From Bulleidia sp. (GTDB taxonomy: Bacteria > Bacteroidota > Bacteroidia > Bacteroidales > UBA932), in the NCBI GenBank assembly GCA_963623745.1, contig CAVFMX010000046.1:201-64200 (forward strand): a DNA stretch of 64,000 bases, written 5' to 3'. Each line of letters starts with the position of its first letter. The first letter of the stretch is position 1. The translations under genes and the position numbers were made by a program. This document shows positions 25,479 through 63,214 of this stretch, in pieces. The notes under the pieces are model-generated. The model saw only the letters and a program-made list of their open reading frames with translations. It ran no database searches and had not been told where the DNA came from.

Positions 25479-25491
25479 GATTCGTTCTTGA

Positions 25492-26472: not shown

Positions 26473-26511
26473 CAATACCATAAAATTATCTCACGACTCG
26501 GCAGCCGACGG

Positions 26512-27732: not shown

Positions 27733-27734
27733 AT

Positions 27735-35820: not shown

Positions 35821-35826
35821 TGACAG

Positions 35827-38441: not shown

Positions 38442-38619
38442 TATGTGTCGGATCTTTGATTGACGGTATTCTTCTTAATTCTGTAAAGTTATACATTTTT
38501 CCCGAATACTCCATAAGGGTTCCATGAACAAAATCCCCCTCCATGCCAATGTCAACCATGTCCGGCACACTTCTGTCAGACAATGTCAGCGGTGTCAGGA
38601 CACCCCGGCGGCCTGACAA

Positions 38620-39534
38620 TCACTCTATCTCAGCGTCAATCATTATCGGATGATGGTCAGATCCCCACTTGAGCGTCATCAGTTCCGAGTCCTCGCAACG
38701 ATAGGTGCCTACCTTTATCCTTTTGCTGACGAATATGTAGTCAAGGCGCCAGCCATAACTCCGGTCCGTGTTGAAGCCGTGGTACGTGTTCTCCCTGCCC
38801 ACAATGTCCGTCGCCACAGCTCTGGAGTCGGACATCCCGCAGCTTTCTATGTAAAGGATTCCGGAACGGTCCGGAGTGGAGTTGAAATCACCCGTGTAGA
38901 ACATCGGCAGGCCTTCCGTGTTGATCTCTCCGGACTTCCGGACAAGCATCTTCACCTCTTCCATGTGGGCGGAAGGATTGTCATCAGGATGATGGACATG
39001 GGTGTTGAACACATAGAATTCCACACCGGTGGAGATCTCCTTGAAAAGACCCCATGTACAGGCGCGGGAATAGGTGGCGTCCCACGCCCATGTGTTAGGC
39101 GTGTCCGGAGTAAGCGAGTACCAGAACTGTCCGTCCTTCACGACCTCGAAACGGGATTTCAGGTAGAATATCGCGTCATTTTCATTCTTCAAGGCGTTTG
39201 TCTTGCCGGCTATGTCAAGACCGATCCTTCCATATTCCCCGCTTTTAAGGATTGAGTTGACCTGCCATGTCAGAGCCTCCTGACTGCCGACAATGTCAAT
39301 GTTGTAGTCCTCCATCATGCCGGTGATGACCTTCACCCTGTTGACCCATCTCCGGTTCGCATCAGCCGGAGTGGTCTTCTCGAAAAGCATGTTGTACGAA
39401 CAGATGCGTATCTTGTTCCCTGTCAGAGCCTCCGCCTTCTCGGAAGAAGACCCGGAGCCGCTTCCTCCCTCGTCTTTGGCGCAGGCGAAAAAGCCGAACA
39501 TGAGGGACAACGCCATGATCACTACTTTTTTCAT
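38620..39534 (-). CDS. Endonuclease/exonuclease/phosphatase (EEP) family lipoprotein
   Basis: Lipobox FFAC. SYN, GSQE, NTH, GDFN, LDYIF and SDHHP motifs are all intact. Confidence 0.88.
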   Translation of the reverse strand: MKKVVIMALSLMFGFFACAKDEGGSGSGSSSEKAEALTGNKIRICSYNMLFEKTTPADANRRWVNRVKVITGMMEDYNIDIVGSQEALTWQVNSILKSGEYGRIGLDIAGKTNALKNENDAIFYLKSRFEVVKDGQFWYSLTPDTPNTWAWDATYSRACTWGLFKEISTGVEFYVFNTHVHHPDDNPSAHMEEVKMLVRKSGEINTEGLPMFYTGDFNSTPDRSGILYIESCGMSDSRAVATDIVGRENTYHGFNTDRSYGWRLDYIFVSKRIKVGTYRCEDSELMTLKWGSDHHPIMIDAEIE

Positions 39535-39541
39535 GTCATAG

Positions 39542-39579
39542 AAAAAAACTCCCTGCCGTCGTCAGAGGACGGCAAGGAG
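39542..39579 (-). terminator. Intrinsic terminator inside the PUL, just before the EEP gene
   Basis: Minus strand CTCCTTGCCGTC-7nt-GACGGCAGGGAG-TTTTTTT. Confidence 0.75.
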
Positions 39580-39596
39580 AACCATTCAACCATTCA

Positions 39597-41330: not shown

Positions 41331-41352
41331 TTGTCGTTTTCTTTAATGTTGA

Positions 41353-42987: not shown

Positions 42988-42999
42988 TTCAGGGTGGAT

Positions 43000-45900
43000 T
43001 TAAAATTGAACCTTGACACCGACAGAGTAGGTCTTGGCCTGAGGGTAGTTGACGACCGTTGACTGACCGCCGCCAGTGTTTATCTCAGGGTCAATCATCG
43101 TGAAGTTCGTGAAGATGAACGGATTCTGCGCATCCGCATAAAGCCTGACACTGGTCACATAGCCTTTCAGGGCACGAAGCATCCTTGCATCGAAAGTATA
43201 GCCGAGAGTTATGTTTCTGACCCTCAGGAAAGACGCGTCCTCCCGGTTGTTATCGACCCCAAGAGAGTAAGGAAGCGTGGAGCATTTCTGTGCGGCATAT
43301 CCCACAAGCGTACCGTTCGGGTTGGTGATCGAGTTATAGTTCCCGAATGCCGTCAGGGCTATGTTCCGTCCCAAAGTCGTCAGGCTGTAGGTGTTCGCGT
43401 ACCCAAGTGCGTTGTTATACTTGGAGATCCCCACACGGCCGTAGCAGTAGATGTCGAGATCCCAATTCTTCCACGTGAAGGTGTTGCCGAAACCGAAATA
43501 GAACTTAGGGTCTCCGACATTCTCGCGATAGACATCGTTGACATCTATGACACCGTCATTGTTCTTGTCAACAATGATAGGGACACCAGGCATCTGCCAC
43601 GATTCGTCAAGCGACATCTGTGAGGCCGGCATGTTGCTGCGGTCCGAATTGATTATTCCGTCCGACTTGTAGTGATAGTAGTAGCTGACAGGCTCGTCAG
43701 GAAGCGGATTGCCGTCAGCATCAAGCTGATAGACCGCATAATCATAGTTGGCGACCCTCTTCACCCATGTGGTCGCATTTTTCGACCAGTTGAGAGATGT
43801 CGTCCAGGTGAAGTCCTTGGTGACGATGTTCCTGGTGTTGACGGAGATTTCGACACCCTGCCTTTTATAATGTCCGTCGTTGACAGGACGGCTCACGAAC
43901 ATGTCTTTCCAGCTTGCGTTCTCGTAGAGAAGCTGGTTGGTCTCATCGTTGCGGTAAAAATCCACACTGCCCCACACCCTGTCGTTGAGGACAGAGAAAT
44001 CAAGGGCGATGTTCTTCATCTCCGTGGTCTCCCAGGAGACATCGTCATAGTCCTCTCCGCTGAGGACATAAGGATGGTACTTGGTCTGTCCCTGATCAAA
44101 GGAGACTATCTTGCCAAGAGCATAGACCCCATACAATGACGTGCCAAGGTTGTCACGTCCGGTCTGGCCATAAGATGCGCGGAGTTTAAGGAGATTTACC
44201 CACGGCACATCCTTCAGCCATTGTTCGCCGGTGATCTTCCATGCGACGGACACCGACGGGAACACGCCGTATTTCTTTGACGGGAAGAATTTGTCCGTAC
44301 CGTCACGACGTACCGACGCCGAGATGACATACCTGTCAAGGAAGTCGGCGGACAGGCGCGCGAACTGGGACCTCTTCTCACTCGCCGAACGGGAAGAGTT
44401 CACCGTGAAAGGCCCTTCAGCGACACCGGCAAGGTCGTTCCCGATCGCATCATTGGTGTTCGTGTAATAGAAATAATGGTTGAAGTAGTTCGTGTAATAC
44501 ACTCCCATGCCGGCGACGGCCGTCAGATCAACCATGTCAGCCAGACGATGCCTGAACTCAAGCGTTCCCTCGATGGTCTGCTTCTGGTAATTGGTGGTGC
44601 CGATCTGTCCCCTTGACGTGTAGGTCTGGTTGAAGTAAACCGTTGAAGGGATGTAGTACTGCCGCTCCACGGTCTCCTTGTCCAGTCCATAGACACCCTT
44701 GAGTTTGAGCCAATCCTTCACGATGTCGATGTCGAGGTTGAAATTCGCGTAGATCGAGTTCTTCTCGGTGGTGTCGTCAATCTTGAGAAGTTCCGCCGGA
44801 TTCGGAACGCTTCCGAACATCGTGGCGTTGCCGTCCGCGTCCGTGGCGCCGAGAATCGGCGGATAAGTGACGGCTGCCTGATAAGCTCCGTAGCTGTGTC
44901 CTCCGACCTGATCTGCACCGACGGTGGAATTCTTGTACTTGTTGTTGTTATAGTTGAGGGTGGTCGAGAGTCTCACGAACGGGAACAGTTCGGCGGTGAC
45001 GTTGGTCCTGATCACGTACCTTCTCATACCCGAATTGTAAACCGTACCGTCCTGATTGAAATAGTTGAGGCCAAGATAGTAGCGCAGCTTGTCCGTGCCA
45101 CCCTGGACAGTGATGTTCTGGTTGTTGATGCTACCCGTCCTGAGAACATTCGATGTCCAATCGGTGTCTATGGTGTTGGCGGCGATATATTCAGATGAAT
45201 AGACCGGCTCCCAATTGCCGTCATACGCATTGTCCCCGTAAGGATAGACACCCTTGTTATAGTAGTAAGCTTCCTTGCTGAAAGCATTGGTGAGCCGCAT
45301 GAACTTGTCAGCGTTCAAGACCTTCAAGGTTCTCGTATTCTCCAGCCAGGAGTAGCTTCCGGACCAGGTGACCATCGGACGGCCCTGCTTTCCTTTCTTG
45401 GTCGTGATGATGACGACTCCGTCCGATGCTCCGATACCATAGATGGCGGCGGACGCATCCTTCAGGATCTCGATCGACTCGATGTCCTCAGGGTTGATGC
45501 CGCCAAGACCCGAACGGTTGATCGAGGACGTGAGATAGGATGAGCCGGCGGCGCCGGATTCGACGGCGGTGCTTGGCATCACCACTCCATCCACGACATA
45601 GACAGGCGTGCCTCCTCCACGGATGCTGATGCTCACCGCTCCGTCAGGCTGCGGACTCGAAATGTTGGACTGCACACCGGCGGCGCGGCCAAGGAGAAGA
45701 CCCGACACATTGCTGACAGCGGCCTTCGTGACTTTGTCCGCCGAGATGCTTGACACTGCGGTTGTAAGGTTCTTTCTTGTTGTCGTGCCATAACCGATCA
45801 CTACAGCCTCGTCAAGGCTTCTTCTTTCCTCCTCCAGGACGACATCGTACCGGGAACGTGTCCCGACCACAAAAGTGTTGTCAACATAGCCAAGCGAGGA

Positions 45901-46359
45901 GACGATGATCTCGTCGCCCTGCGCTGCCGTCATGGCATAGTTTCCGGAGACATCCGTGATGACACCGTCACCCGACGGGCGGCGCACGACAGCCGCACCG
46001 ATGACCGGTTCGCCGTTCTCGTCAACAACCTTGCCGGAGATGCTCATTCCGGGGTTGGACGACTTGACGGATTTTCTGATGGTCACTTTGGTTCCGTCAA
46101 TGACATAAGTCACATCCTGCCCATTCAGAATCTGGGCGATGGCCGACTCAATGGAATTCGCGTCAACGTTCACGATCTTCCCTGTGTTCAGATCCTCGGA
46201 AGCGAAGACGAATGACCAGCCGCTCTGTTTTTGAAGTTCAGTTATGGCTTTCCGCACAGTTGTATTCCTCAAGTGAATACTGATGTCCTGAGCGAATGCC
46301 GCTACCCCCCCCCATAACACAGCCGCAATCATGATGCAGGCTCTTAATTTAGGGTTCAT
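43000..46359 (-). CDS. SusC/RagA TonB-dependent transporter with N-terminal STN signalling domain
   Basis: STN-like N-terminus, DEAVVIGYG, INPEDIESIEILKDASAAIYG, RRDGTDKF, LKLRASYG and YPQAKTYSVGVKVQF. Confidence 0.95.
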   Translation of the reverse strand: MNPKLRACIMIAAVLWGGVAAFAQDISIHLRNTTVRKAITELQKQSGWSFVFASEDLNTGKIVNVDANSIESAIAQILNGQDVTYVIDGTKVTIRKSVKSSNPGMSISGKVVDENGEPVIGAAVVRRPSGDGVITDVSGNYAMTAAQGDEIIVSSLGYVDNTFVVGTRSRYDVVLEEERRSLDEAVVIGYGTTTRKNLTTAVSSISADKVTKAAVSNVSGLLLGRAAGVQSNISSPQPDGAVSISIRGGGTPVYVVDGVVMPSTAVESGAAGSSYLTSSINRSGLGGINPEDIESIEILKDASAAIYGIGASDGVVIITTKKGKQGRPMVTWSGSYSWLENTRTLKVLNADKFMRLTNAFSKEAYYYNKGVYPYGDNAYDGNWEPVYSSEYIAANTIDTDWTSNVLRTGSINNQNITVQGGTDKLRYYLGLNYFNQDGTVYNSGMRRYVIRTNVTAELFPFVRLSTTLNYNNNKYKNSTVGADQVGGHSYGAYQAAVTYPPILGATDADGNATMFGSVPNPAELLKIDDTTEKNSIYANFNLDIDIVKDWLKLKGVYGLDKETVERQYYIPSTVYFNQTYTSRGQIGTTNYQKQTIEGTLEFRHRLADMVDLTAVAGMGVYYTNYFNHYFYYTNTNDAIGNDLAGVAEGPFTVNSSRSASEKRSQFARLSADFLDRYVISASVRRDGTDKFFPSKKYGVFPSVSVAWKITGEQWLKDVPWVNLLKLRASYGQTGRDNLGTSLYGVYALGKIVSFDQGQTKYHPYVLSGEDYDDVSWETTEMKNIALDFSVLNDRVWGSVDFYRNDETNQLLYENASWKDMFVSRPVNDGHYKRQGVEISVNTRNIVTKDFTWTTSLNWSKNATTWVKRVANYDYAVYQLDADGNPLPDEPVSYYYHYKSDGIINSDRSNMPASQMSLDESWQMPGVPIIVDKNNDGVIDVNDVYRENVGDPKFYFGFGNTFTWKNWDLDIYCYGRVGISKYNNALGYANTYSLTTLGRNIALTAFGNYNSITNPNGTLVGYAAQKCSTLPYSLGVDNNREDASFLRVRNITLGYTFDARMLRALKGYVTSVRLYADAQNPFIFTNFTMIDPEINTGGGQSTVVNYPQAKTYSVGVKVQF

Positions 46360-46383
46360 TAAATTACGTTTTTGTGGTTGAAC

Positions 46384-47370
46384 TTAATTGAATATTATAG
46401 TGGATCCATTTATCTCACATCTTATCTTCCCTGTCGCCTCAAGGGATTTCAGGATGTCATCGAGAGTGCAGTCGTCCCCCACGAAGCAACAGTAGAATCT
46501 CGTGGACTTGAGCGCCTCGTCCGCAATCATCACATGTACCCTATAACGGCGTGAAAGTTCGTTGGCGATGGTCTGAAGAGTCGAGTTCTCAAACACGATG
46601 GCTCCGTTCATCCATTCGGCAGGAGAAATGGACGACTGCACGCGTACCTTCATCCGTCCGTCACCTTTGATGATCTCCGCCGTCTGACTGGCATTCAGAA
46701 CAGCATATTCCTTACCGCCGCCAAGAAGATTGTGGACTTCCGCGCTCCCCTCGACAACGGACACGGAAATGAAATCATTGTTGTCGTACGCGCTGATGTT
46801 GAATTTCGTCCCGATGTCCTTGATCGAGGCTCCGTTGACGTTCACGATCAAAGGTAGCGTCTCGTCATGCCTGACATCAAAGAAAGCCTCGCCGGAGAGG
46901 GTGATGTTCCTTTCCGTCATGCCAAAACTCCTGCGGTAGGAGATCCGGGAATCCGAATTCAACGTCACCACCGTCCCGTCCGACAGGGTCACGGAAGTGG
47001 TTGAACCGGCAGGCGCGGAAACCGAACACTCGGCAAGAGCGGCGGGTTCGCAGACACTCCTGACACCCTTGCGGAACGAGAGAGAAACACACAAAAGCAG
47101 ACAGGCGGCTCCGGCGAGTCCTATGGAAAGGCAGCGGACAAACACCAGCCTGCGCGTGGAGACATTCTTATGCACTTTCCTCTGGAAACGCGAATAAGCC
47201 TTCTCCGAGTCGAATCCGGCTCCACGGGAAGCCAGCCAGATCTCCCTTCTTTTCTGAAAATAAACCATGTTCGCCTTGTCTCCGGCAATCCACTCCTTGA
47301 GGAATCTCATCTCCTCAAGAGAAGCGTTGCCCGTGAGATAGGAGGCTATTATTACGTCTATGTCGTCCAT
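46384..47370 (-). CDS. FecR-family anti-sigma factor
   Basis: TM helix, LSDGTVVTLNSDS, LSGEAFFDV, GTKFNI and VVEGS. Confidence 0.92.
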   Translation of the reverse strand: MDDIDVIIASYLTGNASLEEMRFLKEWIAGDKANMVYFQKRREIWLASRGAGFDSEKAYSRFQRKVHKNVSTRRLVFVRCLSIGLAGAACLLLCVSLSFRKGVRSVCEPAALAECSVSAPAGSTTSVTLSDGTVVTLNSDSRISYRRSFGMTERNITLSGEAFFDVRHDETLPLIVNVNGASIKDIGTKFNISAYDNNDFISVSVVEGSAEVHNLLGGGKEYAVLNASQTAEIIKGDGRMKVRVQSSISPAEWMNGAIVFENSTLQTIANELSRRYRVHVMIADEALKSTRFYCCFVGDDCTLDDILKSLEATGKIRCEINGSTIIFN

Positions 47371-48012: not shown

Positions 48013-50238
48013 CTATCGTCTTTCCAACATGCTTGACGGGTAGTAGTGCAGGAGGATCCGGTCGTAGGTGTAGCCGCGGCTGGCCATCACGGCGGCACCG
48101 ATCTGGCAGAGACCGACACCGTGCCCCCATCCGGCTCCGTCAAGAACCAGCTTGTCGCCTACCCATTTCACCTCAAAGGCGGAACTCTTCAGGTGGGAGT
48201 CGGACAGCCAGCGGCGGATGATCAGTTCCTTGCCGATGACCATCGTCCTCCTGTCGCCGATGACCTTCAGCCGTTTCAGTCTTCCGGAAGGGCCTCTCTC
48301 TATCGGGACAAGATCCCTGATCGTGCCGAAATCGATCCCTGAGCGTCTGCGGACAAGGTCGGAGACCTCCGCCCTTGAATATTCAGCGGTCCATCTGTAG
48401 AAGTCCTTGGTTTCCAGATCGTAGTCGTTGAGCACCTGTGAAAGGATCTGTTCGTCCTCCGTGTCGCAGAACACGTCACCGCCCTCCTTGAAGTCCGGAG
48501 TGTCCGGAAGCGGCTGAAGGTAAGGATAGTCCTTGTCTTCCCAGCAGGTGCTGAAAAGTTCCATGCGTCCGCCGCAGCATTTGGAGAATCGGGCGTCGCA
48601 GATCTGTCCTTCAGAGGTGAGCACGAGTCCCCAGGTCTGGTCTACGGCCTTGCGGACGGTCTCACCCACAGCCATCGTAAGGCCTTGGTAGCGTTGGCAG
48701 TGGTCATCGGCACAGACATCGAAGAGGGTGTGGTCGTCGTGGTCGAACCATTTGATGTACTCTTCGTCTTCGGTCACTGAACTTGTCGATGTGGCCTCGG
48801 CCGTTTCAGCCGGATCCAGCCGCCGGGCATGCCGAAGCGACGGATTCCGACGATGCTCCATCTGTGCCAAAACCCATGATCTGGAAATGACCGCATGAGC
48901 CTTGAGGAACTCCAATCCCGCAGAGGCCTTCATCTCGGAGGAAATGACGCTCAGAAGATAGTCCTCGACACCGACGATGTTCACGGCCGTGACCTTGTCT
49001 CCGTCCACGATGAACTTGAGCGTCCCGGCGAACTTCTGCGTCACCTTGCGCTCCCAATGGAAATCCACCCCGATGGTCACCCCGTAGAGGATGAATGACG
49101 GCTCGGCGAACATCGTGGCCTCGGTCTGCGCCTCGAAGACCAGTTCATCGTAAAGCGCTCCGTTGTAGGAGATGCGGCCCTGCGAGTATTCCACTTTTTG
49201 CCGGCCGGCCCCGTCCGAGATGATCTCGAACTCGATCTCTCCGCCGGACATGATGCCGACCTCCAGCCTGCGCTGGGATCTGGTCAGCCTCCAGATGATG
49301 CCTTTCTCGGTCTCCTCGCTGACGGTGATCTCACGGATGACAGAGGTAAGGAGCGCGGCATCAAGCTTGTCATAGTCCTCTTGCCTCGGAGCCACGAACA
49401 CCCCGCCCAAATCCGCGCATCCGGGGCTCATCGCCAGATGATCCTCTCCGGTCGAGCAATAGTTGTGCGGACGGTGCTTTTCTCTGAACACGACAATGGA
49501 GCGGTACTCCCCCTCATGCACCCAGGCGAACAGGTTGATCTTCGGCTCGTCAGAATCTTCAGGGACAGGGGCGCAGTCCAGAAGCCGGTAGAAAAGCTTC
49601 GCCACGGACTTGGCCGTGCCTCCGCAAAGGACGAAAACCCCGGAAGCATATTCATCGAGATGGAAGAGCTTGGCTTCCTTGACATTCGTAAGGAATTCGA
49701 GGGTCTTGCCCTCGCCAACCGCCAACAGGGCGTCCACCCTGTTCTGGAGCGGCATCAGCCCTTGCGGACAGGCCTGGAAATGCATGTGGTCCGGTGCCGA
49801 GGCTCCGCTCACCGGACCGTTGTAGAATCCGAGATATTCATCATGCCCCCTGACGAAGTCAAGAAGATCCTGGTAGCGGTGCCAGATCGACTGGGGAGTG
49901 TGGTCGGAACTTGAGATCACCAGATGGGACGGGAAAATCGGGTACGGATTCAGCGTGACACGGTACTTGCGCCCCTTGCGGCCCTCGAACTCGATGTGCG
50001 TCTGTTCCGCGGGACGGTTCTCCGGACAGAGGAAACACGGCCTCTCACTGAGGGATTTCCTGTCCAACGCGGCCTCGGAAGAGATCTTCCTGCACGGGTT
50101 GTGCTGCACGGTCACTTCCAGACCGCCGATGTCAAAACGCTTGGTCTCCACTTTCTTGAGGTTGCGGTAATTCTCCGCGGCCAAAGGCCAGACCGAAAGC
50201 TGATCCTTGATGAATTTGTCGATTTGATTGTCCATCAT
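48013..50238 (-). CDS. DUF4922 (HxHxQ nucleotidyl-phosphorylase-like) - SpoIID/LytB fusion protein
   Basis: N-half: RPCFLC, NPYPIF, YNGPVSGASAPDHMHFQ. C-half: EDYLLSVISSEM, KAHAVISRS, DVCADDHCQRY, GWGHGVGLCQIGA, ILLHYYP. Confidence 0.85.
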   Translation of the reverse strand: MMDNQIDKFIKDQLSVWPLAAENYRNLKKVETKRFDIGGLEVTVQHNPCRKISSEAALDRKSLSERPCFLCPENRPAEQTHIEFEGRKGRKYRVTLNPYPIFPSHLVISSSDHTPQSIWHRYQDLLDFVRGHDEYLGFYNGPVSGASAPDHMHFQACPQGLMPLQNRVDALLAVGEGKTLEFLTNVKEAKLFHLDEYASGVFVLCGGTAKSVAKLFYRLLDCAPVPEDSDEPKINLFAWVHEGEYRSIVVFREKHRPHNYCSTGEDHLAMSPGCADLGGVFVAPRQEDYDKLDAALLTSVIREITVSEETEKGIIWRLTRSQRRLEVGIMSGGEIEFEIISDGAGRQKVEYSQGRISYNGALYDELVFEAQTEATMFAEPSFILYGVTIGVDFHWERKVTQKFAGTLKFIVDGDKVTAVNIVGVEDYLLSVISSEMKASAGLEFLKAHAVISRSWVLAQMEHRRNPSLRHARRLDPAETAEATSTSSVTEDEEYIKWFDHDDHTLFDVCADDHCQRYQGLTMAVGETVRKAVDQTWGLVLTSEGQICDARFSKCCGGRMELFSTCWEDKDYPYLQPLPDTPDFKEGGDVFCDTEDEQILSQVLNDYDLETKDFYRWTAEYSRAEVSDLVRRRSGIDFGTIRDLVPIERGPSGRLKRLKVIGDRRTMVIGKELIIRRWLSDSHLKSSAFEVKWVGDKLVLDGAGWGHGVGLCQIGAAVMASRGYTYDRILLHYYPSSMLERR

Positions 50239-54538: not shown

Positions 54539-55240
54539 TTACAGCATGTTCATCAGGGTGGAGCGGTAGCTGTCACCGATGGGGATGGTCTTGCCGCCTG
54601 CCATCAGGATCACGCCGGAGCGGACTTCGGTGACTTTGGCGAGGTTGATGACGTAGGAGCGGTGGACACGGACGAAACGGGAGGCAGGAAGTTTCTCAAG
54701 GAGCTTGGAGAAACTCATCAGGACAACTTTCGGCATCGGCTCGCCGGAGAGGTAGATTTTCAGGTACTCGCTCATGCCTTCGATGTAAACCATGTCGGAG
54801 ATCTCGACCTTGATGATCTTGTAGTCTGCCTTGAAGAACACAAAGTCATCCGGCACCGACTGACCGGTCCCTGCGGCCTGAATCATCTCGAAACGGGAAC
54901 GCAGCTTCTCGGCGGAGGCGATGAACTCACCCAGCGTGTACGGTTTCAGCAGATAGTCCACGGCATCCACCTTGAATCCCTCTATTGCATATTCGGAATA
55001 GGCTGTCGTGAAGACCACCAGCGGCGGACGCTTCAAGGTCTTGACAAAGTCCATCCCGGAAAGATCCGGCATGTTGATGTCCAGAAACATAGCATCCACC
55101 TCATTTTCTTCCAGAACCTTACGAGCCTCGATGGCACTCGGGCAGGCAGCCGTCAGCGACAGGAACGGAACCTTGGAGATGTATTTCACGATCTGCCCGA
55201 GAGCCAGCGGCTCGTCATCCACCGCGATAACCCTTAACAT
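54539..55240 (-). CDS. LytTR family response regulator
   Basis: VDDEPLA, FLDINMP, FTTAYSEYA, DYLLKP and FVRVHRSYVIN. Confidence 0.95.
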   Translation of the reverse strand: MLRVIAVDDEPLALGQIVKYISKVPFLSLTAACPSAIEARKVLEENEVDAMFLDINMPDLSGMDFVKTLKRPPLVVFTTAYSEYAIEGFKVDAVDYLLKPYTLGEFIASAEKLRSRFEMIQAAGTGQSVPDDFVFFKADYKIIKVEISDMVYIEGMSEYLKIYLSGEPMPKVVLMSFSKLLEKLPASRFVRVHRSYVINLAKVTEVRSGVILMAGGKTIPIGDSYRSTLMNML

Positions 55241-56433
55241 AGTGAAACAGGTTTTGAAGGTAAGACCATAAGCACCTCATACTCGGCGGCGGTCTTGTCG
55301 ATGTGCAGGACAAAATCCTCTCCGTAGAGCAGCGAGAGCCTTTTCTGAAGATTGTCAAGTCCGATTCCGCCGGCTGTCCGCCCGTCCTCTTCGGAACTCA
55401 GGCTGTTGGCGCAGCGGAAGATGACTCTGCCGGATTCCAGTGCTACCGACAGACGGATGTGGCTGTCAGACCTATAACTTATTCCGTGTTTGAAGGCATT
55501 CTCCGCGACGGTGGCCATCAGAAGCGGAGGAACCTGAGCCCCGCCGTCATCCTCGGGGAATGAATATTCAATCCTCACGCTGTCGGTGTAACGCAGGCGC
55601 ATCAGGTACAGGTAGTGCCTCAGGAAATCAATTTCCTTTGAAAGAGGGACGGTCTGGCCGTTGCTGTCGTACAGGACATAACGCATCAGGCGGGACAGTT
55701 CCACGATGCTGTCCTTGGCCTTTTCCGGAGAATCATCCACCAGCGCATGAATGTTATTGAGCGTGTTCATGAAAAAATGCGGGTTGATCTGGCAACGGAG
55801 ATATTCAAGCTTGTACCGCAGATTCTCCTTCTCCAGCTCTTCCAGACGCTTTTTCTCAAGGGAGTAGTTCGCGTAGTATTTCGCTCCAAGATTGACTCCC
55901 AGCATCATGAGGGCGATGATGATTCTGCTGGCTTCGGCACCGACAGGCTTTTTGCCCCGCCCGTCGCGTGGAGGCTCCGCCCGCCTATATTCATTGCCCC
56001 CGCCAGATTCCTTCATTTCCGGCGGAGTGTCCGGCCGCTCCTCTCCGGACGGCATTCCACGGTCGTCCATGAAGTCTCGCGGCGGAGGCGGATTCTGACC
56101 CGGCCGCTCCATGGGTTCCGGTCTTCCGTCCGACAAACTTTCCGATTCAAACACATAGAATGAGAACGCACCCATCAGCGCCGCCACACACAGGATGTAC
56201 GGAACCACCCGCTTGGCACGGACAAGCATGGGGGCGACAAGCAGATCGTGGATGCAGAACAGCACCAGAAAAGGAAGCGTAGGCAGCAGGAACGTCGTCA
56301 GATAATGCGACAGGAAGCCTATCGCTGAATTCCCGGCGGACTCCCACCAGGCCGGCAGAGCCTCGACCAGGAATATCCCCGTCCAGACGGCGGCCTTCAC
56401 CGCCAACGATTTATAGTCCTTGAACATTCTCAT
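55234..56433 (-). CDS. LytS/YehU-type sensor histidine kinase
   Basis: QINPHFFMNTLNNI, ENAFKHG and GIGLDN. Four TMs with a Pro-rich loop. Confidence 0.93.
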   Translation of the reverse strand: MRMFKDYKSLAVKAAVWTGIFLVEALPAWWESAGNSAIGFLSHYLTTFLLPTLPFLVLFCIHDLLVAPMLVRAKRVVPYILCVAALMGAFSFYVFESESLSDGRPEPMERPGQNPPPPRDFMDDRGMPSGEERPDTPPEMKESGGGNEYRRAEPPRDGRGKKPVGAEASRIIIALMMLGVNLGAKYYANYSLEKKRLEELEKENLRYKLEYLRCQINPHFFMNTLNNIHALVDDSPEKAKDSIVELSRLMRYVLYDSNGQTVPLSKEIDFLRHYLYLMRLRYTDSVRIEYSFPEDDGGAQVPPLLMATVAENAFKHGISYRSDSHIRLSVALESGRVIFRCANSLSSEEDGRTAGGIGLDNLQKRLSLLYGEDFVLHIDKTAAEYEVLMVLPSKPVSLC

Positions 56434-56475
56434 TCCGATGCAAAATTACAACATAGTTCCGAATTGGCGGCGCCG

Positions 56476-56506
56476 GTTCGCTGAAGAAATCAGCCCGTTC
56501 GCTGAA
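56476..56506 (+). promoter_or_regulatory. LytTR-type operator: 10-bp direct repeat with 11-bp spacer
   Basis: GTTCGCTGAA at 56476-56485 and 56497-56506, about 30 bp upstream of an imperfect -7 element (TTACCTTG, 56535-56542). Confidence 0.72.
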
Positions 56507-56571
56507 AAAAGTGCACACAGGCACAATTGATGCCTTACCTTGCGGTCAGAAACCAATAAAAACGTGAGGAC

Positions 56572-58254
56572 ATGAAACGGTCTTATCTTGCATTTCTTCT
56601 GGTCTTGGGTTCCTGCGGCGGGAATCTGATAGACACCATCGACGATCCGTCAAGCGATGACTCTTCCTCAGACAACGAAGTCATCACGACCGATGGAACC
56701 ATCAGCATCGTGTACTCCGAGGACGGCGTGGCCGTCAGCGGAGACCCGTCCGGCTTCGTGTCCGTCAGCGGATGCGACGTGACGGTCAACAACACTTCAG
56801 AGGCTCTCATCACCTATGAGCTCAGCGGAACCGCCTCGGACGGCTTTTTCAAGCTGTACAGTTCCGTAAAGCAGGTGATTGAACTCAACGGCCTGAATCT
56901 CAAGAATCCGGACGGGGCGGCCATCAACAACCAGAGCCACAAAAGCACTTCAATCATCGTGTCCGGCGAGAACTACCTCACCGACGGCGCGGTCAACTCT
57001 TCCGGAGACTATCCGGACCAGACCTCCGACGAGGACATGAAGGCGGCTTTCTTCAGCGAGGGACAGCTGATCTTCAGCGGAGACGGAAGCCTCACCGTCA
57101 CGGCGAACGGCAAGGCCGGAATCACGAGCGACAACTATGTGGTCATCCAGGACGGAGTCTCGATCAATGTCACCTCCAAGGGCGGACACGGAATCAGAGG
57201 CAGCGAGAAAGTGACGGTCAGCGGAGGTACGGTCAACGTGAACACCTCGGCGACAGGGAAGAAAGGAATCTCCACGGACGGAGGATTCTCCCTCAGCGAC
57301 GGAGAAGTCACCATCATCTCGACAAGCTCGGCGGGAACCGTGGACGGAGAGTTGACCGGAGCGGCCGGGATCAAGGCCGACGAGTCCGTCGTCGTCGATG
57401 GCGGAAGCCTGAACGTGACCGTCAGCGGGAAGGGCAGCAAAGGAATAGCCTGCGACGGGGACGGCCATTTCAACGGCGGGACCGTCAAGGTCGTCGCCAG
57501 CGGCGCGAACTACGGGAGCTCTTCCTCACAGAATCCTTGGGGCGGTTCAAGCTCCTCTGAATCGAAATCCTCCAAGGGAATCAGATTCGAGGGCGACCTC
57601 TATTTCAATGGAGCCGACGTTGACGTGACCAGCGCGTCCCACGAAGGGATCGAGGCGAAAGGGACGATCACTATCACAGCCGGGAAGGTCAGCGGCACGG
57701 CAAGCGACGATGCCATCAACTCCGGCGGCGACATGACGATCAGCGGAGGAAAGGTCTATGCGTTCTCCAGCGGCAACGACGGCCTGGACGCCAACGGAGA
57801 CCTGTACGTCAAGGACGGCTACATCTTCGCCGTCGGCTGCGGCTCCCCTGAGGTCGCACTGGACGCGAACACCGAGGAAAGGCACCAGCTCTACATCAGC
57901 GGAGGCACATTGCTTGCGTTCGGCGGAGTCGAGTCCGGAGCCAGCATCTCGCAGCCTGTACTCAACGTGACAAGCTGGACGGCGAACGCATCATATTCCC
58001 TCTACAGCGGCGACACCCTTCTGGTTGAGTTCACAGCCCCGTCAAAGGGCGGCAGCGGAATCGTGATCTCGCACCCGAGCCTTGTCAGCGGCAGTTCCTA
58101 CACACTGAGGACATCTTCCGGAAGCACGACCCTGACAGCCTCGATGAGCGCACAAAGCGGTGACGGCGGCACCGGCGGCGGTGGCAGCAATCCCGGCGAT
58201 GGCGGCGGGAACCCTGGAGGCAACCCTGGAGGCGGCGGCCCGGGCGGCAGATAG
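56572..58254 (+). CDS. Cthe_2159/DUF4353 family beta-helix lipoprotein
   Basis: Lipobox LGSC, YELSGT, LNGLNL.NPDGAAINNQS, repeated (K/D)GI..G...I.GG.V coils, DDAINS, DGLDANG, Gly/Pro/Asn tail. Confidence 0.82.
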   Translation: MKRSYLAFLLVLGSCGGNLIDTIDDPSSDDSSSDNEVITTDGTISIVYSEDGVAVSGDPSGFVSVSGCDVTVNNTSEALITYELSGTASDGFFKLYSSVKQVIELNGLNLKNPDGAAINNQSHKSTSIIVSGENYLTDGAVNSSGDYPDQTSDEDMKAAFFSEGQLIFSGDGSLTVTANGKAGITSDNYVVIQDGVSINVTSKGGHGIRGSEKVTVSGGTVNVNTSATGKKGISTDGGFSLSDGEVTIISTSSAGTVDGELTGAAGIKADESVVVDGGSLNVTVSGKGSKGIACDGDGHFNGGTVKVVASGANYGSSSSQNPWGGSSSSESKSSKGIRFEGDLYFNGADVDVTSASHEGIEAKGTITITAGKVSGTASDDAINSGGDMTISGGKVYAFSSGNDGLDANGDLYVKDGYIFAVGCGSPEVALDANTEERHQLYISGGTLLAFGGVESGASISQPVLNVTSWTANASYSLYSGDTLLVEFTAPSKGGSGIVISHPSLVSGSSYTLRTSSGSTTLTASMSAQSGDGGTGGGGSNPGDGGGNPGGNPGGGGPGGR

Positions 58255-58276
58255 CAAACAATAATATTCATTGAAT

Positions 58277-58684
58277 ATGAAAACGAAGATATTCATGATT
58301 TTCCTCCTGTCGCTTTGCTCCCTGTCGCTGCCTGCGCAGGACAAGGCAAGCAAACGCGACATGATTGTCAAGGAGTGGAACATCGATGCCGGCACTAACC
58401 AGAAAGTGCTTGACCATCAGACAATCTACAATGAGAAAGGCAAAAAGGTCGAGGAGGCGGAATACGACCGCAAAGGCCAGAAATGGCGCAAGAAGTATGA
58501 ATATTCCCCCGACGGCAGCCTGCTGCGGGTGCTGATCTACGACTCCTCGAACAGGCTCGACAACATCCGCAAGTTCGAATTCAACGAACTCGGCCACAAG
58601 AAGACTGAATATGTCTATGACTCAAAGGGAAAACTCAAACGCTGCAAGGTGTATGAATATTCCTTCGCGGCCTCCGGTGACTGA
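58277..58684 (+). CDS. Small secreted protein with repeated Y-x-Y-D/N beta-hairpins
   Basis: Signal peptide ending LPAQD, repeats IYNEKG / EYDRKG / EYSPDG / IYDSSN / EFNELG / VYDSKG. Confidence 0.65.
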   Translation: MKTKIFMIFLLSLCSLSLPAQDKASKRDMIVKEWNIDAGTNQKVLDHQTIYNEKGKKVEEAEYDRKGQKWRKKYEYSPDGSLLRVLIYDSSNRLDNIRKFEFNELGHKKTEYVYDSKGKLKRCKVYEYSFAASGD

Positions 58685-59483
58685 CGACGGTCTTCTGGAC
58701 CGGTTCGAGCCGATCACGCTGGAGCGGATGGATTCCATCCGGCTGATGAACCGGACTGACACCAAGTTCGTCACCGACACCTTGACGCTGCGGGAAATCC
58801 TTGAAGACGCGCTCAGGCACGGCTACATGGCGTTCGAGACCGGCGGAGAACGGGTGCAGGCCTACGACAGCATCTATTTCGACACCAGGGATCTGACGAT
58901 GTTCACGGACCACCGCAGAGGAAAGCTTGTCAGGCAGAAGGTCAGAACCCGCGTCTATCGCGGCTCGGGGCTTTGCTTCCTTGAGGTCAAGAAAAAGAAC
59001 AACCATTCGAGGACCCGCAAGAAGCGCATGGAACTGCCTCCTGCTGATTTCAGGGATTTCAGGGACAATCCTGACGCCTGTCTCTGGCTGGCATCTCATT
59101 CCGATTTCCGAGGCGATGAGGTTTCCCCGTCCGTCGAGACATCGTTCAACCGGATCACCCTGGTCAACAAAGGTCTGACGGAACGTCTCACGATCGACAC
59201 CTCGGTGTCTTTCAGGAATTTGAGGACAAAGGCCACGGCCGATCTGGGTTCCGCGGTGATCATTGAGCTCAAGCAGGACGGCAGACTCCGCAGCGAGATG
59301 AAGGAAATCTTTCTGAAGCATCGAGTCAAGCCTTTCAGAATCAGCAAGTACTGCATGGGCACCGTCTTGACGGACTCAGGTGTGGTCCGCGGCAGATTCA
59401 ATCTGAAAATCAGAAATATTGACAAATTGAACAAAAACTTTTACATCAAATGTTACAATCCGGTATTACTCCGCCCGCTTTAG
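58653..59483 (+). CDS. VTC (polyphosphate polymerase) domain protein, CYTH/TTM fold
   Basis: LMNRTDTKF, SIYFDT, KVRTRVY, FLEVKKK, TRKKR, FNRITL, RLTIDT, IIELK and ISKY. Start uncertain (ATG 58653 or GTG 58677). Confidence 0.85.
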   Translation: MNIPSRPPVTDDGLLDRFEPITLERMDSIRLMNRTDTKFVTDTLTLREILEDALRHGYMAFETGGERVQAYDSIYFDTRDLTMFTDHRRGKLVRQKVRTRVYRGSGLCFLEVKKKNNHSRTRKKRMELPPADFRDFRDNPDACLWLASHSDFRGDEVSPSVETSFNRITLVNKGLTERLTIDTSVSFRNLRTKATADLGSAVIIELKQDGRLRSEMKEIFLKHRVKPFRISKYCMGTVLTDSGVVRGRFNLKIRNIDKLNKNFYIKCYNPVLLRPL

Positions 59484-60223
59484 ACGAAAGCGAGCTCCTG
59501 GGAATCCAGGCTCTCTCCGACCCGGTGATGAGCACGGCGCAGAGTCTTTCGGAACTCGCGCTGCGGTTCTTCCTCAACCTGCTGTCCTGCTGGGTGATAG
59601 TCTGCCTTCTGTACTATCCGAAAAGCCGCAGGAAAGACTATGTGTTCACCTTCCTGACATTCTCCTCGGCGATGCTGCTTCTGCTCTACGCCATGGGCAG
59701 GGTGGATGTCGGCGTGGGGCTCACGCTCGGACTCTTCGCCATCTTCGGCGTGATCCGCTACCGGACCGAGACCGTCCCGATCCGTGAGATGACCTACCTG
59801 TTCGTGATCATAGCGGTTGCGGCGGTCAACGGTCTCACGCCTCTGTTCAGGGTCACGGGCATTGTGGAGAACACTCCGCACTTCGCTCTCGGAACCGGAG
59901 ACCTGCTTGTGATCGTGGCGGCCAACGCCCTGTCGATCATCCTGATCTGGGTGCTGGAAAGCAGCCGGAGCCTGAGGAAATCCGGCTCGAAGATCATTCT
60001 GTACGACCGGATAGACCTGATCGTGCCTGACCGCCGTGACGAACTTTTCAAGGACATCGAGGAGCGCTGCGGCATCAAGCCGGTTGACATCACCGTCGGC
60101 AACATCGACTTCCTGAAAGATTCCGCCTACATCAAGGTTTACTACAACACCGAATCGGGAGCCGACTCGTCGGTCAATTCCATCGTAAGAAACAAACAAT
60201 TCATTGAAAATCAGAGTTTATGA
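59450..60223 (+). CDS. DUF4956 family membrane protein
   Basis: GLTLGLFAIFGVIRYRTETVPIREMTYLF, C-terminal YDRIDLI...DIEERCG. Confidence 0.85.
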   Translation: MLQSGITPPALDESELLGIQALSDPVMSTAQSLSELALRFFLNLLSCWVIVCLLYYPKSRRKDYVFTFLTFSSAMLLLLYAMGRVDVGVGLTLGLFAIFGVIRYRTETVPIREMTYLFVIIAVAAVNGLTPLFRVTGIVENTPHFALGTGDLLVIVAANALSIILIWVLESSRSLRKSGSKIILYDRIDLIVPDRRDELFKDIEERCGIKPVDITVGNIDFLKDSAYIKVYYNTESGADSSVNSIVRNKQFIENQSL

Positions 60224-61020
60224 GCATCATGAAAATATTCCCGAAAGCCGTCGCCGCAGTCGCGCTGGTTCTGCTGGCACAGGCATATTCAGAAATTTCC
60301 GCACAGGACATCAACGGCCGTGCCTCCGCCGAATTGGACTGGAAGGTCGCGAAAGGGTTCCATCTGAACGCCGAGTACGAGGTCCGCTCGAAGGACTCTT
60401 TCTCCGGAATCGAGAGGAACCAGTTCTCGCTCGGCGCGTCCTACAAGCTGAACAAGTTTCTGAAAACCGGCCTTGAGTACACTTTCATCGGCCACTACGC
60501 CAACTCTTCAGGAGAGTTCCGCCCACGGCACAGGCTTTCCGCCAACCTGACCGGAAGCGTGGATGCGGGCAACTGGCGCTTTTCTCTTCGGGAGAGGCTC
60601 CAGTTCACCCACAAGTCCTACGACATCAATCATTATCAGGAGGTTCTCAACCCTCTGACCCTGAAGTCCCGCCTGATGGCCAAGTACCGTGGATTCAAAA
60701 CCGTGGAGCCTTACGCCTACGTCGAGATCCGCAACATCTTCAACGCCCCGAAGTGCAGCGCCACCCACAACACCGCCACAGACTCGTGGACCGACTACGA
60801 GTTTCTCGGCTACTCCCACGCCTACGTCAACCGCGTCCGCGGAGCCCTCGGGCTGGAGTGGAACCTCAACAAGCGCAACAGTCTGGACTTCACTGTGATG
60901 TACAACCGCCACAACGAACTTGAGATCGACACCAACAAGGCCGGGACCAAGCTCAAGTCCTACGCCTGGCGGAACCCTTCCACCGCCACCGTCGCTGTCG
61001 GCTACAAGTTTTCGTTCTGA
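60220..61020 (+). CDS. DUF2490-like outer-membrane beta-barrel protein
   Basis: Signal peptide, amphipathic strands, RHR, SLRERLQF, EPYAYVE, RVRGALG, C-terminal VGYKFSF. Confidence 0.72.
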   Translation: MSIMKIFPKAVAAVALVLLAQAYSEISAQDINGRASAELDWKVAKGFHLNAEYEVRSKDSFSGIERNQFSLGASYKLNKFLKTGLEYTFIGHYANSSGEFRPRHRLSANLTGSVDAGNWRFSLRERLQFTHKSYDINHYQEVLNPLTLKSRLMAKYRGFKTVEPYAYVEIRNIFNAPKCSATHNTATDSWTDYEFLGYSHAYVNRVRGALGLEWNLNKRNSLDFTVMYNRHNELEIDTNKAGTKLKSYAWRNPSTATVAVGYKFSF

Positions 61021-61026
61021 AACGGG

Positions 61027-61056
61027 GCAAGACCTCCGCGGCTGCGGAGGTCTTGC
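61027..61056. terminator. Perfect 13-bp hairpin closing the VTC operon
   Basis: GCAAGACCTCCGC-ggct-GCGGAGGTCTTGC, 6 nt after the stop. No U-tract on the plus strand. Confidence 0.6.
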
Positions 61057-61105
61057 AAAATTCCGGGAAGATTCCTAAATTGCGCCAAGTAATCACGCTT
61101 GGTTC

Positions 61106-63214
61106 ATGACCCGGAGAACAAAACTCATCTTGTCACTGTGCCTGCTGGCTTTCCTGCCGGCGAAATCTTCAAGCCCGCTGTTCGCCGGGCCGGCAAAGCC
61201 GGGAATCATCACCGTGACCCAAAGCGACGGCAGCACGGTCAGGATCCGTGTCCACGGGGATGAGTTCCGCAATCATGTCACCACGGAAGAGGGCTACACC
61301 CTCGCCGCGGATGCTGACGGGGACTGGGCTTTCGCAAGGCTCGGAGACGACGGACTGCTCGTTCCGACTTCCGTCAAGGCGAAACCTGTCAGCCGGCTGA
61401 CTGATTCCGAACGCAAGATTCTCGGCACCGGGCTGCGGAAGAACCTGATGCCTTTGCGCCCGACCGACCTTCAGCAGAGACTTAAAGCCGTGCGGGCATG
61501 GTCGCCGTCAACCCGCTCCGTGGCGGACGATTGCATTCCGCCGCTTTTGGGAGGCACTTCCTGGAAGCCTGTCGGAAACAAGAAAGTGCTGGTCCTGCTC
61601 GCCGAGTACCCCGACATGCCTTTCACCCAAGGGAGCAACGAAGCTTTCAACGACCTTCTGAACTCCCGGAGCTACACGAAGAACGGAGCCACAGGAAGCG
61701 TCCGGCAGTACTTTCACGACAACTCCGGCGGGCAGTTCGACCCTGAGTTCACGGTGGCTGGGCCGTACAGGCTCTCCAAGAACAGAAGCTGGTACAAGGA
61801 CAGACCGGAGGAGATGGTCGCCGAGACCGCGCGTCTTGCCGACAGCGATGTGGATTTCAGCCATTTCGCGGAGAACGGCGTTGCGCATGACATCTTCGTC
61901 TTCTACTCCGGAGGGGCGGAAAGCACGGGCAACCCCGACGGAATCTGGCCGCACCGGGGCGGACTCAGCGGTCTGACCCTTGACGGAGTCACTGTCCCGG
62001 GCTACGCATGCAGTTCCGAACTGGAGCCGGGCATGCAGGGAAACAACATCCTCGCCGCGATCGGATCATTCTGCCACGAGTTCGGGCATATTCTCGGATG
62101 GCCGGATCTCTACGACACAGTCAACGGCAACAGCACCGAATGCGACCTTCCGGGATTCTTCTCGCTGATGTCCTACGGAACCTATAACAACTACAGCCGC
62201 ACTCCCCCGGCGCTCAGCATCCTTGAAAGATGGATGATGGGATGGGCGGAGCCGGAAGTGCTGGAGACGACGGGGGAATATTCCCTGCCGGCCATCACTG
62301 AAGGCAAAGGCTATCTGATCAGAACCGAGACCGAAGGAGACTACTTTCTCTTGGAATGCCGCGGAACCGGAAAGAACGAGTGGGACAGGAAAGAGCATCT
62401 CGACTACTACGATCAGGGTTCCGGCTGGGGACTTCTTGTCTATCACGTCAGGAACGAGAAAAACAGCTGGATGGGAAACGCGGTGAACGTGACCGCCGGA
62501 AAAGAACACTACACGATCCACTACTCCGATCCCGGCTCCAAGGGCGGTTTCTCTCCGCAGTACCTGCCGGACCACTGTTTCTTTCCGGGCGGAAAGAATG
62601 TGACATCCATCTACAGTGACGGCAATTCGAGGTTCGTGTCAGCCGACGGCAAGAAAATGATGGTCGAGATTCCGTCAATAAGGCTCGACGAGACTTTAGG
62701 CTCGGTAAAATTATCCGTCACGGAGCGCGCCGGAAGCATCACCGACCTCAAGTCCGAAGTCTTCCAGCACGACATCCTTCTGAGCTGGAAGGACGACCTC
62801 TCCTCAAGTTGGACTGTCGAGTGGAGTCCTGAGGGAAGCGGGACCGGAACGGAGACTCTCTCAGGACTGACATCCCGCGAGGCGCATATTCCTTTATTGA
62901 AGGATGGTCAGGAATATCTCATCACCGTCACCGGCGACAGGAACAGCAGGACATCCTTGACCCTCAAGACCGAGAAAACCGGAAGCGGATTCCCGAGGAT
63001 CCGACTCTCCAAGGCCAATCCGACATCGGAGGAAAAAGTCCTTATGATGTTGGTTGACTGCGGCGAAGCGGGCGACATCCAATGGACTGTGGACGGAGCC
63101 AGAACGGACGGTTTCGTCAACCTTCGCAAGGGTGAGCATTACGTTCAGGCGGTTCTGACAAAACCGGACGGCAGCGTTGAACATTTCGTCCGCTTCATCA
63201 ATGTCATTCTGTAA
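61106..63214 (+). CDS. M6 family (immune inhibitor A-like) metalloprotease
   Basis: Signal peptide, QSDG..GDE prodomain, GSVRQYFHDNS, IWPH, CHEFGHILGWPDLYD and SLMSYG. Confidence 0.9.
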   Translation: MTRRTKLILSLCLLAFLPAKSSSPLFAGPAKPGIITVTQSDGSTVRIRVHGDEFRNHVTTEEGYTLAADADGDWAFARLGDDGLLVPTSVKAKPVSRLTDSERKILGTGLRKNLMPLRPTDLQQRLKAVRAWSPSTRSVADDCIPPLLGGTSWKPVGNKKVLVLLAEYPDMPFTQGSNEAFNDLLNSRSYTKNGATGSVRQYFHDNSGGQFDPEFTVAGPYRLSKNRSWYKDRPEEMVAETARLADSDVDFSHFAENGVAHDIFVFYSGGAESTGNPDGIWPHRGGLSGLTLDGVTVPGYACSSELEPGMQGNNILAAIGSFCHEFGHILGWPDLYDTVNGNSTECDLPGFFSLMSYGTYNNYSRTPPALSILERWMMGWAEPEVLETTGEYSLPAITEGKGYLIRTETEGDYFLLECRGTGKNEWDRKEHLDYYDQGSGWGLLVYHVRNEKNSWMGNAVNVTAGKEHYTIHYSDPGSKGGFSPQYLPDHCFFPGGKNVTSIYSDGNSRFVSADGKKMMVEIPSIRLDETLGSVKLSVTERAGSITDLKSEVFQHDILLSWKDDLSSSWTVEWSPEGSGTGTETLSGLTSREAHIPLLKDGQEYLITVTGDRNSRTSLTLKTEKTGSGFPRIRLSKANPTSEEKVLMMLVDCGEAGDIQWTVDGARTDGFVNLRKGEHYVQAVLTKPDGSVEHFVRFINVIL

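Follow-up and report, generated by a model that had tools for sequence, protein, structure and literature searches.

Here we describe a conserved five-gene operon in a 64,000-nt stretch of DNA from Bulleidia sp. (contig CAVFMX010000046.1; the whole stretch is hereafter the window, and all coordinates are positions in it), for which synthesis-coupled export of polyphosphate is the best single explanation, one that we regard as having about an even chance of being right. The genes lie on the + strand in the order Cthe_2159 lipoprotein, small secreted protein, VTC enzyme, DUF4956 and DUF2490; the operon is real and conserved, and the functions discussed below are predicted from its genes. In the favoured pathway, the Vtc4-like enzyme would polymerise phosphate from ATP into polyphosphate on the inner side of the membrane and hand the growing chain to its constant partner DUF4956 for outward passage; the basic DUF2490 barrel would give the chain a way through the outer membrane, the polymer would be bound at the surface by the beta-helix lipoprotein, and a LytS/LytTR pair would turn the operon on. 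The users of the exported polymer in other genomes would be secreted CotH kinases or phytase-like propellers.

A sequence-only reading of the window had described five tightly packed or overlapping genes, and all of them are present, with a 22-nt gap after the first followed by overlaps of 8, 34 and 4 nt, the 34-nt overlap being that between the VTC and DUF4956 genes. The domains it named (VTC, DUF4956, DUF2490 and Cthe_2159) were all matched in Pfam, while NCBIfam gave no name for any of the five genes. The host genome is 1.88 Mb and 79% complete, the GC content of the operon is similar to that of the remainder of the window, and the nearest named homologues come mostly from animal-gut Bacteroidales, part of them labelled Candidatus Cryptobacteroides. 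Two sets of loci were compared. The Bacteroidales set held 107 de-duplicated loci, 5 duplicates having been taken out before counting and one 54-position fragment (G082:C160) left out, and loci close to contig ends were excluded from each count by flank limits. The phylum-wide set was an even draw of 300 Bacteroidota genomes, each at least 90% complete; the enzyme was found in 47 of these, about one in six, and 50 loci around enzyme matches were examined. Conservation of the neighbourhood, which the earlier reading had proposed as a check, was borne out: of the 73 Bacteroidales loci with at least 3 kb on either side, 31 share the five-gene order and 15 the exact seven-gene layout that includes the Lyt pair, the loci being kin and not independent. 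The gene arrangement is far beyond chance, and the proposed layout of one component per compartment, from the cytoplasm to the surface, is conserved.

The evidence for polymer synthesis lies in the enzyme. Its open frame spans 58611-59483, with the GTG at 58677 as the likely start (residue numbers here count from 58668; subtract 3 for numbering from the GTG). The VTC domain fills the 268-aa protein, in which no other Pfam family, hydrophobic segment, SPX domain or membrane helix was found. A search of solved structures with the single sequence returned nothing relevant and profiles were needed; a profile of 46 bacterial homologues matched, at E<=1, only chains of the VTC complex, and aligned with Vtc4 over nearly its full length (positions 5-245, E 2e-24). 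The AlphaFold model (pLDDT 93) gave the same answer in Foldseek, where VTC-complex entries took ranks 1-7 (E 6e-14 to 5e-13, TM about 0.6) with Vtc4 first, and the hydrolase YgiF and other tunnel enzymes followed at E 4.5e-9 and weaker.

The N-terminal motif of the window enzyme is R-x-D-x-K, as against the ExExK motif of hydrolytic TTM/CYTH enzymes. The sections of 10.1101/2023.01.27.525886 on the Vtc4 site name nine triphosphate- or metal-site residues and seven basic residues at the chain exit. Eight of the nine are kept (K200, R264, R266, K281, R361, E426, S457 and K458, which correspond in order to K33, R93, R95, K108, R162, E200, S226 and K227 in the window), each column being conserved in 81-89 members of an alignment of 89 proteins. 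In the same alignment K91, R93, R95, Y97, E106, K108 and K118 are invariant, K227 is kept in 88 proteins, E200 and K202 in 87 and R29 in 85; the lysine at K227 is absent from the non-catalytic Vtc2 and Vtc3. Among the exit residues, R196, K281, K294, R373 and K428 (Vtc4 numbering) are kept. Hydrolytic tunnel enzymes, according to the portion of PMC4641920 that treats them, carry four glutamates as an acidic patch (metal site 2) where Vtc4 is basic. The corresponding positions in the window are R29, D31, K118 and K202, so that one acid is left, in a register to AtTTM3 that we infer with no superposition; K202 stands two residues past the metal-binding Glu, where the AtTTM3 equivalent is E171 (PMC4641920, same portion). 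Because the Vtc4 site residues are kept and the acidic patch is mostly Arg or Lys, a polymerase is likelier than a hydrolase, and there is a fairly strong case for predicting that the enzyme is a polyphosphate polymerase. The link to polyphosphate proposed from the sequence thus gained substance from the Vtc4-like active site, as well as from phosphate-related neighbours in other genomes, which include a PiT transporter, phytase-like genes, phnDCE, a phosphate-selective porin and CotH.

The DUF4956 protein is predicted to be the partner of the enzyme. It is encoded in 50 of the 50 phylum-wide VTC loci, directly downstream in 48, and in 95 of the 96 Bacteroidales loci with enough flank; beyond these, it is annotated beside the enzyme in four of four annotated records (Nitratireductor, Aminobacter and two Deinococcus) and was found there in two actinobacterial records with our own profile. 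Its model (pLDDT 77; residue numbers count from 59468, add 6 for the annotated gene) consists of five helices followed by an ACT-like domain, an order which, in the secondary structure of the model, is that of MgtC/SapB. MgtC matches were obtained for 8 of 23 homologues at E<=0.001 (best E 4e-6, best score 27.5 bits), all 23 lying below the Pfam MgtC cut-off of 31.4 and the window protein giving no MgtC match; matches of the ACT type were weak. Helix 3 ends with a near-invariant RxRT motif, whose Arg residues are present in 99-100% of 154 sequences and which is placed in the cytoplasm on account of the ACT domain. The monomer model had no match among solved folds at E<=0.001 (best Z 8.3, to an unrelated helical bundle), a null result that is compatible with a Vtc1-like arrangement. 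The earlier suggestion of a Vtc1-like channel is so far unsupported, the protein being MgtC/ACT-like instead, and DUF4956 can be put forward as a polyphosphate conduit only tentatively. Profile comparison indicated that DUF4956 and the barrel are unrelated. Two apparent fusions were rejected: a 526-aa VTC-DUF4956 read-through (P0271), considered as evidence of contact, is a probable artefact, being the only such case among 8000 scored long candidates and a single sequence on a 2-kb contig, and a 778-aa form at locus L173 stems from a spurious upstream frame.

The sequence-only reading had offered two directions, synthesis with export or import with hydrolysis. The former is favoured because of the polymerase-type basic residues and of an efflux adaptor in a sister clade, the latter less so. 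This adaptor, an EmrA/HlyD-type protein of about 355 aa whose profile matches EmrA (E 1.5e-20), MacA and AcrA, is encoded in 30 of the 50 phylum-wide loci and DUF2490 in 13; none has both and 7 have neither. A quick tree of 76 rows, for which the more careful search was not completed, separates the adaptor loci from the rest by a single branch (support 83) and puts the window in a barrel clade (support 99). One locus, L177, adds a TolC-family gene. The window operon has no adaptor gene, and six adaptor-like genes lie on other contigs of the genome. We therefore hold the outward direction with moderate confidence, as an analogy borrowed from the sister clade. A match to phosphate-selective porin O/P (22 bits against a cut-off of 20.9) was also observed at L162:10125-11129 (G207), between DUF4956 and CotH, in the slot of the barrel.

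The envelope parts are open to more tentative predictions. The DUF2490 barrel has conserved charges at R56, R103, R105, K149, R151, E169 and R207, and scores 0.89 against KdgM/NanC in the Atlas, which is a lead only. A porin has no built-in direction. DUF2490 is entered as a putative porin of unknown function in a listing in PMC4827864, and we weakly favour a polyanion passage. The small secreted protein, which has no Pfam family, carries many conserved Lys, Arg, Glu and Tyr residues across 82 sequences and occurs in 72 of 91 Bacteroidales loci and in 2 of the 50 phylum-wide loci; RHS_repeat or DUF2963 is present on 12-56% of the members of its look-alikes in the Atlas, at a score under the threshold of the tool, a weak lead. 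It is possibly a periplasmic link, a role that we assign with little confidence. Lipoproteins of about 140 aa, with no Pfam family and unrelated to the small protein of the window, occupy its slot in five distant barrel loci (L186:8193-8642, L190:7477-7893, L195:8165-8575, L196:8203-8628 and L197:9409-9816). The beta-helix protein has a lipobox-like Cys at residue 16, matches PDB 4peu (E 4.5e-10) and bears a conserved array of Asp, Glu and Asn; positions at least 85% conserved in 44 aligned sequences include E358, E361, K363, D379, D380, N402, D403, D406, E427, D431 and E435. In most homologues the last residue of its Gly/Pro-rich tail (58180-58254) is basic or aromatic. Binding of cellulose and polygalacturonate is reported for the Cthe_2159 family (10.1101/401869, citing Close 2014), and the window protein might be a surface binder of polyanions or metals. 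The function of display that had been proposed for it is so far unsupported, the beta-helix being optional (44 of 73 Bacteroidales loci, 3 of the 50 phylum-wide loci).

A LytS/LytTR pair was correctly reported as divergent from the operon, on the - strand, and it likely switches the operon on; 23 of 73 Bacteroidales loci have a LytS or LytTR gene no more than about 8 kb from the VTC gene. The LytS-type kinase has a Pro/charged loop of variable length among homologues (55950-56150). LytTR proteins bind direct repeats of about 21-bp period upstream of their targets. A conserved direct repeat that had escaped the earlier reading, TTCGCTGAA-N12-TTCGCTGAA, sits in the 138-nt gap 5' of the lipoprotein gene; it has the period and position expected in a LytTR regulon and is predicted to be the LytTR operator. 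Of 26 loci with a Lyt gene, 15 have a loose form of the repeat upstream, versus 5 of 58 without such a gene, and it occurs in none of 68 downstream control stretches, counts which show conservation and not binding because the pattern was derived from this window and the compared loci are kin. Genome-wide, the window repeat is the sole exact double copy among 5 loose matches. At L120 and L139, a LytTR-type repeat lies 64-83 nt before the VTC gene with no Lyt gene nearby, which suggests that the operator may travel along with the core genes.

At the other end of the operon, the hairpin that had been taken to close it has a real 13-bp stem, with a folding energy of -30.8 kcal/mol for 61018-61075 and a z-score of -5.0. 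The closing role is plausible, not demonstrated, because no U-tail was found on either strand, the terminator scan did not list the hairpin and no common hairpin was present in the 70 nt past the barrel gene among 35 related loci compared. The last result leaves a conserved terminator unsupported; a REP-like repeat was rejected as well, the genome having a single full copy. Directly after the hairpin, on the same strand, lies an M6-family metallopeptidase gene (61106-63214), which was rejected as an operon member since it is not conserved beside the operon and had no homologue in the loci of 32 relatives. The operon flanks in the window, by Pfam, hold an HU-like gene, a thioesterase and this M6 peptidase. 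The coordinates of the main features are collected in Table 1.

Table 1. The operon, its divergent regulators and the associated non-coding elements.
Feature	Position	Strand	Basis
LytTR-family response regulator, 233 aa; likely operon regulator	54539..55240	-	Pfam Response_reg and LytTR
LytS-type histidine kinase, 399 aa, with membrane segments	55234..56433	-	PF06580, E 4e-26; hydropathy and homologue comparison
Direct repeat, predicted LytTR operator	56477..56506	+	21-bp period
Cthe_2159-family beta-helix lipoprotein, 560 aa, pI 4.3	56572..58254	+	PF14262, E 1.6e-40
Small secreted YD/RHS-like beta-repeat protein, 135 aa, pI 9.3	58277..58684	+	Signal-peptide-like start
Soluble Vtc4-like tunnel enzyme, predicted polyphosphate polymerase, 268 aa	58677..59483	+	PF09359, E 7.8e-28
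DUF4956 inner-membrane protein, 257 aa, five predicted helices and ACT-like domain	59450..60223	+	PF16316, E 1.2e-46
DUF2490 outer-membrane beta-barrel, 266 aa, pI 9.6	60220..61020	+	PF10677, E 1.3e-16
GC-rich hairpin, perfect 13-bp stem, possible 3' end or stability element	61027..61056	+	Folding

A possible use of an exported polymer is indicated by the distribution of CotH. All 47 VTC-positive Bacteroidota genomes encode it, versus 71 of the 253 VTC-negative ones, an association whose Fisher p of 9e-23 overstates the case, the genomes being kin and not independent. CotH lies inside 12 of the 50 loci (10 by Pfam, 1 by a separate CotH search and 1 by our own profile only) and phytase-like propellers in 5. 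Within the genus, CotH is found in 15 of 18 VTC-positive versus 8 of 18 VTC-negative genomes, and in other families in 9 of 14 VTC-positive ones. In the four VTC-positive genus genomes without a CotH match (G000, G014, G015 and G028; 77-89% complete) the operon includes the beta-helix in every case, a hint that other clients may exist. Matches to both VTC and CotH were also obtained in three tractable species, Bacteroides thetaiotaomicron, Corynebacterium glutamicum and Methanosarcina acetivorans; in the first of these, BT3498-99 carry the annotations DUF4956 and DUF2490 in PMC10434189. A deep-branching VTC type (L052 and L183) has a divergent CotH gene close to the DUF4956 and VTC genes or between them, and at L183 an O-antigen-ligase-type gene and a sugar methyltransferase follow immediately downstream. 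As for the known polyphosphate enzymes, PPK1, PPK2 and PPX were not found in the host genome at its 79% completeness. Of the 36 genomes of the genus, 18 have VTC, 1 has PPK1 and none has PPK2; a complementary distribution of VTC and PPK1 was rejected as a general rule, as it is confined to the genus and 7 of the 14 VTC-positive other families also have PPK1. Locus L060 (G042:C14:28253-31932) has a PPK2 gene some 2.4 kb away from VTC. DUF4956-VTC pairs were observed near phosphate-related genes at three other loci (L142:7372-11412, L144:7421-9733 and L145:5635-12475); in alphaproteobacterial plasmids the pair is joined to a PiT transporter and/or a phytase-like gene, and in a Deinococcus plasmid it lies near a HAD phosphatase and phnDCE.

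A number of observations weigh against synthesis-coupled export. For the enzyme, the active-site counts are partly circular because the proteins were gathered with a VTC profile. Vtc4 Y359 is F160 in the window (Tyr in 44 and Phe in 42 of the 89 proteins), and Y359F reduces polyphosphate in yeast (10.1101/2023.01.27.525886, in its account of the mutants); the position of Vtc4 T198 is Asp or Glu in 88 of 89, and the exit residue R280 is not kept, K300 having no confident mapping. DUF4956 has MgtC-like helices, none of 23 DUF4956 proteins is similar to DUF202/Vtc1 at E<=0.5, and no conserved basic residues were seen mid-helix in its predicted membrane helices. As to direction, the exclusivity of adaptor and barrel amounts to one event, since the tree needs a single change, and the outward direction must be borrowed because the clade of the window has no adaptor. 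The best solved match of the barrel profile is an uptake porin, KdgM (E 0.0017, profile positions 41-194), and a section of the preprint 10.64898/2026.07.29.741452 describes a buried network of two Arg, two Glu and a Tyr in 238 of 2,789 DUF2490 models; with that network buried, some of the conserved barrel charges may not line an open pore. CotH was not found in 3 of the 18 VTC-positive genus members, in 5 of the 14 other families or in the host genome, 79% complete. Finally, in the mutant experiments reported in PMC12345266 for Streptococcus intermedius, DUF4956 and CotH mutants lost more than 50% of aggregation in sputum medium while a polymerase mutant still aggregated, a pattern that, for that assay, speaks against a strictly linear pathway; deletions of the first two genes had opposite effects on Pel levels.

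Taken further, synthesis-coupled export would make VTC-DUF4956 a third, widespread bacterial polyphosphate synthase, extruding its product across the inner membrane and sharing ancestry with eukaryotic VTC while using an unrelated channel. Interchangeable outer modules (adaptor/TolC, DUF2490 barrel or phosphate porin) would then export the polymer as a phosphoryl donor for CotH or as a metal-binding polyanion held by Cthe_2159. We offer this full version tentatively, as something less than an even bet.

Of the other explanations, the one that survives best, although we consider it unlikely, is cytoplasmic phosphate homeostasis, in which polyphosphate would stay inside as a substitute for PPK, an MgtC-like DUF4956 anchor or sensor would control the enzyme via its ACT domain, and the envelope proteins would import phosphate or a phosphorylated substrate. 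The MgtC-plus-ACT architecture, the near absence of PPK1 and PPK2 from the genus, the PiT, phytase-like and phnDCE neighbours elsewhere and the 7 loci with neither adaptor nor barrel are all as this account would have it, and LytS/LytTR pairs often control uptake genes. However, the efflux adaptor of the 30 phylum-wide loci has no role in a cytoplasmic store, PPX for reusing the store was not found in the incomplete host genome, and VTC is no simple PPK substitute because it occurs together with PPK1 in half of the VTC-positive other families.

Still less probable is that the enzyme moves the phosphate of ATP to another acceptor, such as a lipid- or sugar-linked primer or a short oligophosphate, and so modifies a surface glycan or protein, with the barrel or the beta-helix perhaps catalytic instead of a passage. 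The Gram-positive pel linkage, the O-antigen-ligase-type gene at L183, the clade-specific F160 and D31, the buried charges of the DUF2490 models and the close association with CotH, of a kinase family, would all suit such a role. Yet the neighbourhood of the enzyme in 112 Bacteroidales loci has no conserved glycosyltransferase or other glycan gene, and the enzyme retains the basic residues by which the exit of Vtc4 guides a linear chain. Least probable is import, with the beta-helix capturing polyphosphate or an acidic oligosaccharide, a KdgM-like barrel and DUF4956 taking it in, and the tunnel enzyme hydrolysing the polymer or running in reverse to make ATP: the polygalacturonic acid binding reported for Cthe_2159 (10.1101/401869, citing Close 2014), the resemblance of the barrel to the oligogalacturonate porin KdgM and the acid left at position 31 speak for it, but the hydrolase patch is mostly Arg or Lys, the polymerase-specific Lys is present in 88 of 89 proteins, the sister-clade adaptor and TolC partners are export parts, and no sugar-degrading gene is conserved nearby in those 112 loci.

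For the question of how bacteria export polyphosphate, and for that of which phosphoryl donor the secreted CotH kinases use, the operon names concrete candidate parts, present in 47 of 300 Bacteroidota genomes; if the export explanation is true, it would also give functions to DUF4956, DUF2490 and Cthe_2159. A passage of a study of the gonococcal surface layer (PMC10237660) refers to other gene products possibly involved in translocating polyphosphate at the outer membrane. For Gram-positive pel loci, the joint occurrence of VTC, DUF4956 and CotH has been published before: the relevant part of 10.1101/768473 describes cotH and DUF4956, along with a polyphosphate polymerase, beside pel genes in streptococci, clostridia and bifidobacteria, and the passages of PMC12345266 on the trio SIR_1592-1594 read the DUF4956-like SIR_1592 as MgtC plus ACT and state that the trio was not found outside pel loci. 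Contrary to that statement, CotH-VTC-DUF4956 occurs with no adjacent pel annotation in Deinococcus and in 12 of the 50 Bacteroidota loci. Where they touch on these genes, PMC11677781, PMC10434189, PMC6848847 and PMC13454231 merely list them; the relevant parts of PMC9911596 and PMC10657179 cover the eukaryotic complex, and the "VTC" in the matching passage of PMC6514570 is an unrelated domain. In the literature searched, with subscription papers and supplements excluded, we found no report of the activity of a bacterial VTC enzyme and no description of synthesis-coupled polyphosphate export of this kind in bacteria.

Elsewhere in the window, one cluster (34405-47370) of FecR, SusC/SusD, a NamZ muramidase, an AmpG-like MFS transporter and an APH-RapZ fusion looks like an uptake locus for peptidoglycan recycling. 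A NUDIX gene adjoins a DUF4922-SpoIID fusion at 48013-50238, and an ordinary arginine biosynthesis cluster lies at 18907-27738.

Among known systems, the acidic-sugar porins KdgM and NanC share with the DUF2490 protein a small barrel (predicted for the latter), conserved Arg and a weak profile match, but belong to another Pfam family. MgtC/SapB proteins, which are linked to phosphate metabolism in work cited in PMC12345266, likewise have a helical membrane domain followed by an ACT-like domain; DUF4956 differs in falling below the Pfam cut-off in 23 of 23 cases, in its invariant RxRT and in its tie to the VTC enzyme. Hydrolytic TTMs (AtTTM3, E. coli YgiF and CYTH) have the tunnel fold and the invariant metal-binding Glu in common with the window enzyme, whose second-metal-site acids are, unlike theirs, largely Arg or Lys, and they gave lower fold scores and no profile match. 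The Gram-positive pel accessory genes place the same enzyme and membrane families side by side, whereas the window operon has neither pel genes nor CotH and belongs to a diderm host with a barrel, a small secreted protein, a beta-helix lipoprotein and LytS/LytTR. The eukaryotic VTC complex (yeast Vtc4/Vtc3/Vtc1; PDB 3g3q, 7ytj and 8i6v) shares the tunnel fold, eight of the nine site residues including the catalytic Lys, a mostly basic chain exit and a constant pairing with a membrane protein. The window enzyme differs in standing alone as a soluble protein, with no SPX domain or fused membrane helices and with Phe for Y359; its partner is MgtC/ACT-like and not a three-helix Vtc1 subunit, and the operon adds periplasmic, outer-membrane and surface parts. 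The operon is thus like the yeast VTC machine in its enzyme, yet it is not a member of that complex.

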